A program made the position numbers and the translations under genes. From the NCBI GenBank assembly GCA_013265495.1, contig MU057666.1:73599-137598 (forward strand): a DNA stretch of 64,000 nucleotides, read 5' to 3'. The notes beneath the pieces are model-generated. The model had not been told where the DNA came from and ran no database searches. It saw only the letters and a list, made by a program, of their open reading frames with translations. The stretch comes from Vicugna vicugna (taxonomy: Eukaryota). Shown here one piece after another: positions 13,009 through 44,340 of the stretch. The first letter of the stretch is position 1. Every line of letters begins with the position of its first letter.

Positions 13009-13102
13009 TGTTGTGTTTGAAGATCCTTATGGTTGCACCTGAGAGGCGGGCCCTGAGCACAAGAGATGCGTGGTTTAACTCATCACTTAAAATGAGGCAC
13101 CC
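13009..13102 (-). pseudogene. SPTLC3: SPTLC3 exon 6 (94 nt)
   Basis: Acceptor cttcttttccacacag. Reads [31 protein letters not shown], including the DxxNHAS motif of PLP-dependent alpha-oxoamine synthases. Donor A|gtgagt. Confidence 0.93.
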
Positions 13103-13528
13103 CTGTGTGGAAAAGAAGCACACAAAACACAGGCCAATAAAGTGAAGGGAAAACACATGTGGGAACAGGAAGACACTTCAAGATGTGTAACACAGATTCC
13201 CCAAACCCTCTTTAATTTTAAAAGGCCAAGAGTTCAATTGGTGTCTATATGGATAAAGTCCTCTAGAGAAATTAGCTGATGGAGATGGGGATTCTTTTAA
13301 GGGATAGCATCTTTCTGAAACATTTGCATATCGTTTTCAGCAGAGAATGTCATTCAAGATCTTGGTTAAGCACCAGGTAGCATATAAAGGATTGATGTTT
13401 GACAGGAAAACTAGTATGATTTTTGGTGGGTTGTGGATTTGCTGGGGCTTTTCAATCCCATGCTGGATTATTTGGGATGGTCCTACTGGGAATCAGGGAT
13501 CTTTTCTGCAAGACGTTTCAAGCTCTTG

Positions 13529-14062
13529 TTTTCTTTTTTTATTATTATGTAACTATAGTCTGTTTAAAATGTTGTGTCAATTTCTGGTGTACAACATAAT
13601 GTTTCAGTCATACATATACATACATATATTCATTTTCACATTCTTTTTCATTATGTTACTACAAGATATTGACTATAGTTACCAGTGCTGTAGAGTATAA
13701 AGTTGTTGTTTATCCATTTTATACATAGTAGTATCTGCAAATCTTGAAATCCTAATTTATCCCTTCCCACCTCTTTACCCCACTGATAACCATAAGTTTG
13801 TTTTCTATGTCTGTGAGTCTGTTTCTATTTTCTAAATAAATTCATTTCTCTCTCTTTTTTTTTTTTTTAGATTCCACATATAAGTGATACCATGTGGTAT
13901 TTTTCTTTCTCCTTCTGGATTACTTCACTTAGAATGACAATCTCCAGGTCCATCCATGTTGTTGGAAATGGCATTATTTTATTATTTTTTATGGCTGAGT
14001 AGTATTCTATTGTGTAAATATTCTACAACTTCTTTATCCAGTCATCTGTCGATGGACATTTA
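13529..14062 (-). mobile_element. Lineage-specific L1 3' end (minus arm of a composite)
   Basis: T-rich tail at left. The sequence parallels L1 copies at 41952-42450 and 54723-55233 (tagattccacatataagtgata...cacttagaatgacaatctccagg). Confidence 0.85.
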
Positions 14063-14616
14063 AATGGGCAGAAGACCTAAAAAAGCAATTCTCCAATGAA
14101 GACATACAAATGGCCAATATGCACATAAAAAATGCTCACTATTATTAATTATCAGAGAAACACAAATCAAAACTATAATGAGGTATCACCTCAGACTAAT
14201 CAGAATGGAGTGGAATATTACTTAGTCATAAAAAAGAATGAAATAATTCCATTCGCAGCAAGATGGATGGACATGGAGATCATCTTTCTAAGTGAAATAA
14301 GCCAGAAAGAGAAAGAAAAATGCCATATGATATCACTTATGTGGAACTTTTTTAAAAGGACAAATGAACTTACCTACAAAATAGAAGCAGACTCACAGAC
14401 ATAGAGAATAAAATTCTGGTTACCAGGGGTTAAGGTGGGAAGGGATATATTGGGAACTTGAAAATTGCACCTCCTGGGGTGCTATCTTCACTGTGTTAGT
14501 GGTTTCATTGGTGTACACATCTATCAAAATTCATCAACACGTACATCTGAAATATATGTAGTTTACTCTGCAGAAAGCATATCACAATAAACGTGTTTTA
14601 AAAAAAGAAAAAAGAA
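14062..14616 (+). mobile_element. Plus-strand chimeric L1 pieces (ORF2 end; jump at 14208; jump to an older L1M 3' end at about 14469)
   Basis: 14062-14208 parallels about 61157-61303 of the in-window L1, and 14209-14469 parallels about 61620-61889. It then switches to a different, older L1 3'UTR ending aataaa plus an A-tail. Confidence 0.75.
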
Positions 14617-41893: not shown

Positions 41894-41951
41894 TTGTGTG
41901 AAATGATGGATCTGGTAGGTTTTCCTCCAGAGGCTCTTGATAAGCTCTAGT

Positions 41952-44143
41952 ATTTTTTTTTAACATTTTTTTATTGATTTATAATCATTTAACAATGTTG
42001 TGTCAAATTTCATTGTAGAGCACAATTTTTCAGTTATACATGAACATATATATAATTCATTGTCACAAATTTTCCTCTGTGAGCTACCATAAGATCTTGT
42101 ATGTATTTCCCTGTGCTATACAGTATAATCTTGTTCATCAATTCTACATTTTGAAATCCCAGTCTATCCCTTCCCACCCCCCACCCACTTGGCAACCACA
42201 AGTTTGTATTCTATGTCTATGAGTCTATTTCTGTTTTGTATTTATGTTTCTTTTTTTTTTAGATTCCATATATGAGATGATCTCATATTTTTCTTTCTCA
42301 TTCTGGCTTATTTCACTTAGAATGACATTCTCCAGGAACATCCATGTTGCTGCAAGTGGCATTATGTTGTTGGTTTTTATAGCTGAATACTATTCCGTTG
42401 TATAAACATACAACTTCTTCTTTATCCAGTCATCTGTCGATGGACATTTAGGCTGTCTCCATGTCTTGGCTATTGTAAATAGTGTTGCTATGAACATTGG
42501 GGTGTAGGTGTCTTTTTGAAGTAGGGTTCCTTCTGGATATATGCCCAGGAGTGGGAATCCTGGGTCATAAGTTAAGTCTATTCCTAGTCTTTTGAGGAAT
42601 CTCCACACTGTTTTCCATAGTGGCTTCACCAAACTGCATTCCCACCAGCAGTGTAGGAGGGTTCCCCTTTCTCCACAGCCTCTCTAGCATTTGTCATTTG
42701 TGGACATTTGAATGATGGTCATTCTGACTGGTGTGAGATGAGACCTCATTGTAGTTTTGAAATTTCTCTGAAGTGATACTGAACATTTTTCTATGTGCCT
42801 ATTGATCATTTGTATGTCTTCCTTGGAGAATTGTTTGTTTAGGTCTTCTGCCCATTTTTGGACTGGGTTGTTTGTTTTTTTCTTATTAAGTCGCATGAGC
42901 TGCTTATATATTCTGGAAATCAAGCCTCTGTCAGTTTCATTTGCAAAGATTTTCTCCCATTCCGTAGGTTGTCTTTTTGTTTTACTTATGATTTCCTTTG
43001 CAGTGTAGAAGCTTCTAAGTTTCGTTAGGTCCCATTTGTCTGTTCTTGATTTTATTTCTTTTGCTTGGGTAGACTGTTCTAGGAGAACATTTCTGAGATA
43101 ACGTTTTGCCTATATTTTCTTCTAGGAGGTTTATTGTATCTTGTCTTATGTTTAAGTCTTTGATCCATTTAGAGGTTATTTTTGTATATGGTGTAAGGGA
43201 GTGTTCTAGCTTCATTGCTTTACATGCTGCTGTCCAGTTTTCCCAACACCATTTGCTGAAGAGACTGTATTTATTCCATTGTATATTCTTGCCTCCTTTG
43301 TCGAAGATGAGTTGACCAAAAGTTTGTGGGTCCATTTCTGGGCTCTCTATTCTGTTCCATGGGTCCATATGTCTGTTTTGGTACCAATACCATGCTGTCT
43401 TGATGACTGTAGCTCTATAGTATTGTCTGAAGTCTGGGAGAGTTATTCCTCCAGCCTCTTTCTTTCTCTTCAGTAATGCTTTGGCAATTCTAGGTCTTTT
43501 GTTGTTCCATATAAATTTTATTATGATTTGTTCTATTTCTGTGAACTATGTCCTGGGTAATTTGATAGGAATTGCATTAAATGTGTAGATTGCCTTGGGC
43601 AGTGTGACTATTTTAACAATATTGATTCTTCCAATCCAAGAGCATGGGATATCTTTCCATTTTTAAAAATCTTCTTTAATTTCCTTCATCAATGGTTTAT
43701 AGTTTTCTGTGTATAATTTTTTGCCTCCTTGGTTAGATTTATTTCTAAGTATTTTATTCCTTTGGGTGGTATTTTAAAGGGGATTGTTTCTTTACTTTCT
43801 TTTTCTGCTGATTCATTGTTAGTGCAAAGAAATGCAACTGATTTTATGAACATTAATCATGTAATGTGCTAACTTGCTGAATTCTTGATTAGTTCTATTA
43901 GTTTTTGTGTGGAACTTTAAAGGTTTCTATATATAGTAACATGTCGTCGGCATATAGTGACACTTTTACCTCTTCTTTTCCTATTTGGATCCCTTTTATT
44001 TCTCTCTCTTGCCTGATTGCTGTGGCTAGGACTTCCAATACTATGTTGAATAGGAGTGGTGATAGTGGGCATCCTTGTCTTGTCCCAGAGTTTAGTGGGA
44101 AGCTTTTGAGTTTTTCACCGTTGAGTACTATGCTGGCTGTAGG
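41952..44143 (-). mobile_element. 5'-truncated lineage-specific L1 (about 2.2 kb) inserted just upstream of the SPTLC3 ATG
   Basis: Poly-T at left; ORF2 remnants ([42 protein letters not shown]). TSD TGATAAGCTCTAGT (41938-41951) / TGATAAGGTCTAGT (44144-44157). Confidence 0.93.
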
Positions 44144-44157
44144 TGATAAGGTCTAGT

Positions 44158-44340
44158 TTTGAATTTGGTGAGGGGATGAGAAAAAGCATGTCTGTTGAGT
44201 TCTTGGAAGAATCCTACCAATCAGGCTTTTCCGGAAGGGGAGCAACAGCCTATCTTTTGGGCTAATCTTCGAGACTAAAAACTAACAGGTACCTTTACAG
44301 TCCTCAACTCAGAATGTGGCCTGCATGGCAACAAAACTGC
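44158..44340 (-). promoter_or_regulatory. Probable SPTLC3 distal 5'UTR / proximal promoter, displaced by the L1 insertion
   Basis: Unique sequence that resumes after the L1 TSD. It carries a motif cluster: TTCTTGGAA (STAT-type, 44200-44208), CCAATCAG (NF-Y, 44217-44224), TTCCGGAAG (ETS, 44229-44237) and CATGGCAAC (RFX half-site, 44324-44332). Confidence 0.55.

Follow-up and report, generated by a model that had tools for sequence, protein, structure and literature searches.

A non-processed SPTLC3 pseudogene in the vicuña genome and its two intact paralogues

The non-processed pseudogenes CYP21A1P and GBAP1 lie near their active parents, CYP21A2 and GBA1, and exchange sequence with them. The SPTLC3-like copy described here (copy C) resembles these pseudogenes in being an intron-bearing segmental duplicate with several independent disabling lesions, in a genome that retains an intact parent, and also in having a short patch that is identical to a live paralogue and includes a pseudogene-type replacement. 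However, copy C is much older, with a divergence of about 15% rather than a few per cent, it lies on a contig other than that of its live paralogues (copies A and B), and the conversion is only putative. Functional mammalian SPTLC3 (pig P0013, 548 aa; for the human gene, PMC9240646) has a 12-exon layout that is the same in A and B; in contrast, copy C is frameshifted, lacks exons, has lost two splice acceptors and is changed at 25 mammal-invariant sites. SPTLC2 (PDB 7k0i_B and others) shares the PLP-dependent alpha-oxoamine synthase fold family with SPTLC3, and exon 4 of copy C matches SPTLC2 residues 161-216 (E=7.3e-10); however, the likely SPTLC2 locus is a separate one, and copy C clusters with A and B. 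We conclude, with a probability of about 0.9, that the window (the whole 64,000-nucleotide stretch of Vicugna vicugna DNA that was analyzed) contains the 5′ half of an SPTLC3 pseudogene that is non-processed and retains introns, a segmental duplicate of at least 140 kb that arose in the camelid lineage. Copy C would thus be a dead paralogue that contributes nothing to sphingolipid synthesis, the function being carried by the intact head-to-head pair A and B on another contig.

Exons and lesions of copy C

A tblastn search of the window with pig SPTLC3 (P0013) returned collinear minus-strand matches for exons 1, 2, 3, 4 and 6, with E values of 3.7e-4, 1e-24, 1.6e-17, 7e-20 and 1e-12, respectively, and the exon limits were then set by a three-way alignment with the intact copies A and B (Table 1). 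All four acceptors in the window are AG and all five donors are GT, which agrees with the collinear exons and intact splice dinucleotides reported in a preliminary description of this DNA. The 5′ half of the copy falls within the window; exons 8-10 map to the same contig (C621) at coordinates lower than the window start. Altogether, copy C holds exons 1-4, 6 and 8-10 in order, the individual exons being 73-91% identical to pig SPTLC3 in amino-acid sequence, and its splice sites are canonical at exons 1-4, 6 and 8. The expected position of exon 7 is occupied by a 3.9-kb run of N (C621:69669-73598), and this exon was left out of scoring. Exon 12 is expected past the start of C621; when exon 12 of copy B with its flank was used as a DNA query against the assembly, the three matches were B itself, A and a 50-nt chance match.

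Table 1. Features of copy C and its surroundings (positions in the window)
Feature	Positions	Strand	Details
Exon 6	13009..13102	-	94 nt; AG/GT kept
Filler replacing the exon 5 region	14209..16220	-	2.0 kb; last ~400 nt (about 14209-14620) a high-copy repeat
Exon 4	17675..17823	-	149 nt; without indel; AG/GT kept
Exon 3	18456..18608	-	153 nt versus 155 in A and B; AG/GT kept
Exon 2	26890..27072	-	183 nt; in frame; AG/GT kept
Exon 1, coding part	41787..41893	-	ATG at 41893; donor GT kept
Target-site duplication of LINE, downstream copy	41938..41951	-	14 nt
LINE (L1-like), 5′-truncated	41952..44143	-	2.2 kb; gene-sense orientation; 9-A tail
Target-site duplication of LINE, upstream copy	44144..44157	-	14 nt; 1 mismatch to the other copy
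Upstream flank of copy C	50735..59196	-	83-85% to C11792:6480458-6488160, 12-20 kb upstream of exon 1 of B

The two frameshifts and the missing exon 5 of the preliminary description were both recovered. In the assembly sequence, a 1-nt deletion after position 41834 shifts the frame of exon 1 at codon 21, a 2-nt deletion after position 18512 shifts that of exon 3, and the first stop in spliced exons 1-2-3-4-6 falls at codon 61. The site of the 2-nt deletion corresponds to a C4G5 run in A and B, the kind of sequence in which assembly indels readily arise. Exon 5 is absent, as 10.3 kb of copy B (C11420:796-11120, which holds the exon) corresponds to a much shorter filler in the window; a search of the genome with this filler found matches elsewhere only for its repeat end (40 of 6990 candidates scored). 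Smaller changes include a 7-nt deletion immediately past the donor GT of exon 2, an exon in which replacements are numerous, and a G>A change of the final base of exon 4. Lesions outside the window further strengthened the pseudogene status proposed earlier: the acceptor of exon 9 is changed from AG to GG, exon 10 has an AG>AC acceptor together with -2 and -1 nt indels, and exon 11 was removed by a deletion of ~2.9 kb. Copy C therefore has neither the uninterrupted reading frame of ~545-552 aa over 12 exons nor the canonical sites at all introns of a functional SPTLC3. As judged from the assembled sequence, the frameshifts, the missing exons and the two disabled acceptors, together with 25 replacements at mammal-invariant sites, leave it unable to encode an SPTLC3 enzyme.

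The L1 previously placed just upstream of the ATG was also confirmed. This L1-like LINE (RVT_1 match, E=3.2e-13, 43898-44152) lies ~58 nt upstream of the ATG, inside sequence homologous to the 5′ region of A and B, and is bounded by a target-site duplication; comparison of the junctions showed that it is missing from both A and B. Scans of the window for Rfam families and tRNAs gave no matches, and a Pfam search of 15 long window ORFs returned only the RVT_1 domain of the LINE and one sub-threshold DUF7175 match. An annotated product of copy C was not present among the 29 proteins retrieved with the exon 4 protein in a search of longer proteins (best identity 89%), nor was one found with the open frame of exon 8 in a search of proteins of near length, for which 84% was the best identity among 120 listed of 651 proteins; these product searches carry no information on other camelids.

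Two intact SPTLC3 genes in the same assembly

A search of the vicuña's own genome with pig SPTLC3 gave 42 matches. Along with seven exons of copy C on C621, the contig of the window, this search identified all 12 exons of copy A on the minus strand of C11792, and copy B with exons 2-4 on the plus strand of C11792 and exons 5-12 on C11420. C11792 terminates within intron 4 of copy B. Copies A and B are arranged head to head and have intact open reading frames of 548 and 544 aa, respectively, with AG/GT at 11 of 11 introns in each. The two are under purifying selection (A versus B over 544 codons: dS 0.097, dN 0.0166, dN/dS 0.17), and they show no differences in exons 3, 7, 9 and 10. Features that distinguish the two types, namely a 12-nt deletion in exon 1, RNRG or RNLG in exon 2 and A or S in exon 5, are both found in predicted proteins of Camelus bactrianus (P0001, P0002). 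As a side result, two intact, constrained SPTLC3 genes appear to be common to Old and New World camelids. A separate locus on C2514, with 48-89% identity to pig SPTLC3 per exon, is most likely SPTLC2; it adjoins an AMOP exon, as would be expected for ISM2.

Origin and decay of copy C

Copy C aligns to A and B through its introns, at 78-90% over kilobases, and the introns between its exons in the window (0.6-15 kb) are homologous to those of the intact copies. A processed origin (retrocopy) is ruled out by these retained introns. The homology of the upstream flank to the region upstream of B (Table 1) goes on beyond the window (C621:137613-139812 versus C11792:6471456-6473674, 89%), indicating that the duplicated unit extends well past the gene. 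The introns of copy C are ~15% diverged from A and B (14-17% in well-aligned columns). Among 9,217 intron columns, A and B agree against C in 860, B and C against A in 436, and A and C against B in 334; the corresponding Jukes-Cantor (JC) distances are 0.099 (AB), 0.167 (AC) and 0.153 (BC), all of them exon-proximal, as they derive from ~3-kb pieces around each A and B exon. In the maximum-likelihood (ML) tree, copy C groups with A and B (support 100/99) inside the artiodactyls (99/97), on a branch of 0.15 compared to 0.009 for A and B. This clustering, its collinear exons with their per-exon identity to pig SPTLC3, and the separate, less similar locus on C2514 place it in the SPTLC3 lineage by descent. 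Thirteen derived states are common to A, B and C relative to other artiodactyls. The protein tree leaves the A/B/C fork open, and the sister grouping of A and B may be inflated by gene conversion between them near exons. Copy C is an ordinary non-processed pseudogene with a probable age of tens of millions of years; the underlying duplication would likewise be tens of millions of years old and precede the divergence of Old World from New World camelids, such that a copy C would be expected in Camelus as well.

A branch dN/dS analysis, as proposed in the preliminary description, indicated relaxed constraint in copy C. Over 381 codons the C branch has a dS of 0.153, a dN of 0.064 and an omega of 0.42, compared with 0.17-0.18 between the live copies. 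This value is nevertheless well below 1, suggesting either that copy C was not always neutral or that it was refreshed by gene conversion from A or B. Replacements specific to copy C occur in 40 of 377 scored columns, and 24 of these lie in the window exons, which bears out the substitutions reported earlier; the A+B stem, A and B have 4, 2 and 1 private replacements, respectively. Among the columns that copy C covers and in which A, B and 10 outgroups show no variation, 25 of 218 are replaced in copy C. The TFTKSFG stretch of exon 8, which presumably holds the PLP lysine, is kept. As the branch dN/dS is about 0.4-0.6 and not 1, copy C may have remained under some constraint during part of its existence; it would then have degenerated through small deletions, the removal of exons 5 and 11, death of two acceptors and insertion of the LINE in its 5′ region.

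The preliminary description had offered two explanations of the broken copy, a lineage-specific loss of SPTLC3 that would alter the ceramide backbone, or the relic of a duplication. The window copy by itself is clearly broken, as expected of a unitary pseudogene in a lineage that lost SPTLC3, with consequences for sphingoid-base composition. However, a count of loci, in which an intact SPTLC3 elsewhere would speak against loss, yielded two full-length intact genes in the same assembly, with an omega of 0.17, and the orientation of copy B is the one that a BTBD3-like PHR exon on its contig would predict. Because two intact, constrained genes are present, there is no lineage-specific loss and no reason to expect a loss of SPTLC3-type sphingoid bases; the gene-loss explanation is thus extremely improbable, and it is the duplication relic that held. 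Just as improbable as loss is an assembly artefact, in which copy C would be a faulty haplotig of A or B, misassembled or riddled with errors, and the lesions would be sequencing errors. Although the region is fragmented (a contig ends inside intron 4 of B), contains runs of N and has one of the frameshifts at a homopolymer-rich site, intron columns that align well show copy C to be ~14-17% different from A and B, its LINE with target-site duplication and its kilobase-scale deletions are private, and its intron lengths differ from theirs. Moreover, 81-86% of sampled 31-mers from window positions 12500-19000 were present in 16 sequencing runs, which belong to 7 studies and two coded organisms. 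A further alternative is that copy C is the positionally ancestral SPTLC3, adjoining ISM1, and died after the duplicates A and B took over. The proposed synteny check with ISM1 and TASP1 did locate such exons (an ISM1-like AMOP exon and TASP1-like exons, on C10822), without a link to A, B or C, which leaves room for this scenario, as does the 3′ end of copy C, which runs off the contig start and could join the ISM1 side. On the other hand, the BTBD3-like PHR exon shares contig and orientation with B at a distance of ~1.0 Mb, an arrangement that matches the human gene order; the 48 kb of contig past exon 12 of B could equally lead to ISM1, and the label 'ancestral' means little in a tandem array. 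We therefore regard an ancestral copy C as quite unlikely.

Sequence exchange at exon 6 and implications

Exon 6 is the same in copies A and C, down to a Gly>Arg codon, and lies within a 103-bp patch of A/C identity, whereas B and 10 of 10 outgroups keep Gly at this site. This identity, together with the intact splice dinucleotides of exons 1-4 and 6, would fit some residual role of a transcribed copy C, such as that of a non-coding RNA or of a gene-conversion donor that alters A. However, the 5′ region of copy C is split by the LINE, the identity could also reflect polishing cross-talk between paralogues in the assembly, and an A-type protein of Vicugna pacos (P0003) has Gly at the replaced site; a residual role is therefore unlikely. 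Reading the three copies jointly, we speculate, tentatively and from sequence comparison, that a camelid-specific SPTLC3 expansion produced two selectively maintained, active head-to-head genes, differing mainly in their N- and C-terminal exons, and a dead third copy. In such an expansion A and B might both be expressed and partly diverged in regulation or acyl-CoA preference, so that the sphingoid-base repertoire of camelids would differ from that of other artiodactyls; copy C might have been functional for about half of its history, and might still exchange sequence with A and be the source of Gly257Arg in A of this assembly.

As a pseudogene, copy C is of little consequence, since the lipid biochemistry of the animal is unchanged by it; however, mammalian gene-loss screens would mis-score its locus unless every copy were counted. 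The triplication of SPTLC3 in camelids (two live copies, one dead) is a mildly new point: a literature search for SPTLC3 in camel or alpaca, or for SPTLC3 pseudogenes, found no paper on the topic among those listed, as judged by title, and in PMC9604959 SPTLC3 serves only as a synteny landmark, in carnivores. Ceramide bases of the skin owe their diversity of chain length to SPTLC3 (PMC9240646), and the A and B pair thus provides a testable handle on camelid sphingoid-base synthesis. Finally, the presence of three SPTLC3-like loci in camelid assemblies accounts for database predictions that stop short or run on into intron sequence: P0001 terminates in intron 4 and P0002 in intron 7, whereas exon 8 of P0003 is followed by an unrelated tail.

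Anatomy of the SPTLC3 copy in the window

The clearest exon-like frame of the window matched 29 proteins of a protein collection, and the named matches were all SPTLC3. Camelid predictions ranked highest, namely P0001 (Camelus bactrianus, 203 aa, 89% identity) and P0003 (Vicugna pacos, 459 aa), and the same translated piece matched the solved human SPTLC2 (7k0i_B, residues 161-216, E=7.3e-10). In a tblastn search of the window with pig SPTLC3 (P0013, 548 aa), exons e1, e2, e3, e4 and e6 were collinear on the minus strand (E between 3.7e-4 for e1 and 1e-24 for e2); no match was obtained to residues ~200-239 (e5) or past residue 272. 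Exon limits were then set by three-way nucleotide alignments of this copy (C) with copies A and B of the same assembly.

These alignments, together with the LINE junctions, bear out the preliminary description of an inactivated gene with frameshifts, no e5, an L1 before the ATG and preserved splice dinucleotides. Acceptor AG and donor GT are kept throughout the window exons, and the first stop in the assembled, spliced sequence is codon 61. A 10.3-kb stretch of B that includes e5 (C11420:796-11120) has no counterpart in C, where a filler occupies its place. The LINE, 5′-truncated within the reverse-transcriptase region and flanked on both sides by a 14-nt target-site duplication whose two copies differ at one position, splits the 5′ region ~58 nt upstream of the ATG; since its site is uninterrupted in A and B, it entered C after the duplication. 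Further lesions lie outside the window, where a ~2.9-kb deletion has removed e11. No e12 of C was found in the assembly, its expected place lying beyond the start of C621, the 373-kb contig of this copy, on which the window spans 73599-137598. The expected e7 interval holds a 3,930-base N run (C621:69669-73598), and e7 is absent from the lesion tally. In 16 runs from seven studies and two organisms, 81-86% of 686 words sampled from window 12500-19000 were present, which argues against a one-off assembly artefact without resolving the two small deletions. Judged by its sequence, this SPTLC3 descendant fails every functional criterion tested and is a textbook non-processed pseudogene.

Features of the three SPTLC3 copies, related loci and repeats (window coordinates unless a contig is named)
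Feature	Position	Strand	Remarks
Copy C e1	41893-41787	minus	107 nt vs 108; 1-nt deletion after 41834
Copy C e2	27072-26890	minus	in frame; 7-nt deletion straight after donor GT
Copy C e3	18608-18456	minus	153 nt vs 155; 2-nt deletion after 18512
Copy C e4	17823-17675	minus	last base G>A
Copy C e6	13102-13009	minus	three-way alignment
Filler at e5 place, 2.0 kb	14209-16220		last ~400 nt are repeat
LINE, 2.2 kb	44143-41952	sense to gene	RVT_1 E=3.2e-13; nine-A end
Copy C e8	C621:59125-58906		below window start; in frame; TFTKSFG stretch kept
Copy C e9	C621:49515-49389		below window start; acceptor AG>GG
Copy C e10	C621:10066-9934		below window start; acceptor AG>AC; 2-nt and 1-nt deletions
Copy A	C11792:6435648-6267494	minus	all 12 exons
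Copy B	C11792:6500208-6532125 and C11420:1-118984	plus	e1-e4 on C11792, e5-e12 on C11420
Copy B e1	C11792:6500208-6500692	plus
BTBD3-like PHR exon	C11792:5.50 Mb	plus
ISM1-like AMOP exon	C10822:5.18 Mb
TASP1-like exons	C10822:4.91-4.97 Mb
Fourth SPTLC locus	C2514:3131378-3215970		less similar; adjoins AMOP-domain exon
GC-rich (58%) repeat	1-1444		87-93% identity to many genome loci
Older high-copy repeats	59678-62087, 54740-55235; L019:4212-8521		72-87% identity to dozens of loci
Perfect (CTAT)n microsatellite, 13.8 copies, and imperfect GT-rich 18-mer array	8238-8292 and 12195-12253

Two intact copies in the same assembly

A six-frame search of the source assembly (2.03 Gb, 12,405 contigs) with P0013 gave 42 matches, which fall into four SPTLC-like loci: A, B, C and a less similar locus on C2514. 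The last is most likely SPTLC2, and the AMOP exon beside it would fit ISM2, in which case the pair mirrors SPTLC3-ISM1, a known ancient paralogon. A and B lie head to head, their first exons ~64 kb apart. Exons e2-e4 of B, on the plus strand, reach the end of C11792 (6532125), and copy C aligns continuously over both contig ends (C621:90599 aligns to the final base of C11792, C621:90593 to base 3 of C11420); B is therefore a single gene cut by an assembly break. The two contigs abut in intron 4 of B, a join missed by the assemblers.

The preliminary description had left two readings, a lineage-specific loss of SPTLC3 or a dead paralogue. Both A and B splice into complete open reading frames (548 and 544 aa, each ending in TGA) with AG/GT at 11 of 11 introns, which overturns the loss and leaves the dead paralogue. 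Over 544 codons A and B differ by dS 0.097 and dN 0.0166; the resulting omega of 0.17 indicates that both are under purifying selection. SPTLC3, the alternative PLP-binding large subunit of serine palmitoyltransferase, makes C16-C24 long-chain bases with SPTSSB and is strongly induced in differentiating keratinocytes (PMC9240646).

Synteny was judged against the human gene order around SPTLC3, with BTBD3, ISM1 and TASP1 as neighbours. The BTBD3-like exon lies ~1.0 Mb from B in the same orientation, resembling the human order, so B appears to have kept the ancestral orientation, and A would be a duplicate inserted upstream of B in inverted orientation. The ISM1-like and TASP1-like exons lie together, on a contig apart from those of A/B and of C.

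Origin and age of the duplication

We compared ~3 kb around each exon of A and B with 94 kb of C621. Identity of C to A and B is 78-90% through the introns, which marks C as a segmental duplicate and rules out a retrocopy. Furthermore, its homology to the upstream flank of B extends over at least 29 kb, giving a duplicated unit of at least 140 kb; this shared flank is broken up by older high-copy repeats, some of them in inverted orientation. Around seven exon regions, 9,217 intron columns aligned well; in these, A equals B unlike C at 860, A equals C unlike B at 334 and B equals C unlike A at 436, and Jukes-Cantor distances are 0.099 (A-B), 0.167 (A-C) and 0.153 (B-C). C is thus the most diverged copy. 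On these sequence comparisons C probably branched first, followed by the A/B split; the homogenisation of A and B around exons leaves this order short of certain.

In the protein alignment, A, B and C share 13 residues that are derived relative to pig, warthog, peccary, sheep and a beaked whale, and four are derived only in A and B. A maximum-likelihood tree (13 rows, 381 columns) groups C with A and B (support 100/99) inside the artiodactyls (99/97), with tips of 0.15 for C and 0.009 for A and B. Together, the tree and the derived residues assign the duplication to the camelid stem, later than the divergence from the other artiodactyls in the sample. General mammalian neutral rates are 1-2.2e-9 per site per year, at which the A/B-C distance of ~0.16 corresponds to roughly 35-80 million years, which we take only to suggest tens of millions of years.

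Forty residues are private to C, and 25 of them fall among the 218 columns covered by C in which the residue does not vary from platypus to pig. A three-taxon decomposition over 381 codons, the branch test proposed earlier, assigned C a dS of 0.153, a dN of 0.064 and an omega of 0.42, versus 0.18 for A-B; C's own omega would be ~0.6 once the constrained A/B stem is allowed for. These values would suit a copy that was held under constraint at first and drifted later, or one that gene conversion occasionally refreshed.

Both A-type and B-type diagnostic features (in e1, a 12-nt deletion that marks B; in e2, RNRG versus RNLG; in e5, residue A versus S) are present in the Camelus proteins P0001 and P0002, so the A/B pair is older than the split from Old World camels. 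B differs from P0002 at one of ~300 aligned residues; P0003 is identical to A in exons 1-2 and differs from this assembly's A in e3 and e6. These comparisons mark the genome as that of a South American camelid. P0001 runs on into intron 4 and P0002 into intron 7; past exon 8, P0003 continues with an unrelated tail. All three predictions are truncated or chimeric, and the triplicated locus probably misled their annotation. A literature search combining SPTLC3 with camel, alpaca and pseudogene showed, among the titles listed, none on camelid SPTLC3 copy number, and supplements of camelid genome papers could list the expansion. Pseudogene C itself is ordinary; a modest lead, apparently unreported, is the camelid SPTLC3 triplication, in which two copies are live.

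Possible exchange between copies, and repeat content

A and B show no differences in e3, e7, e9 and e10 or their immediate 60-nt flanks, but differ at 11 of 130 positions in e11 and 13 of 114 in e12, and raw identity in the ~3-kb exon pieces is only 80-96%. Such a pattern suggests that gene conversion, centred on exons, has acted between the two inverted copies. Likewise, A and C are identical from 7 nt upstream of e6 through its last base (~100 nt; window 13009-13109). B differs from both at three e6 sites, one of which is Gly257Arg in A and C; Gly is kept by B and 10 of 10 outgroups, and P0003 from Vicugna pacos also carries Gly. Since C diverges by ~7-12% in other exons, zero differences in the 94 nt of e6 are unexpected (P about 2e-4, our own arithmetic). 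The patch points to either gene conversion between C and A or paralogue cross-talk in assembly polishing.

The window is AT-rich, mammalian-type DNA (GC ~32-52% in 2-kb bins), and an Rfam search and tRNA scan of its whole length gave no matches. Of 9,622 first-look candidates 39 were scored, and the genome matches listed all lay inside the repeat at window 1-1444, whose long open reading frames had no Pfam match. Judged by its identity to other loci, it is relatively young. This repeat directly follows the 3.9-kb N run and is probably the cause of that gap.
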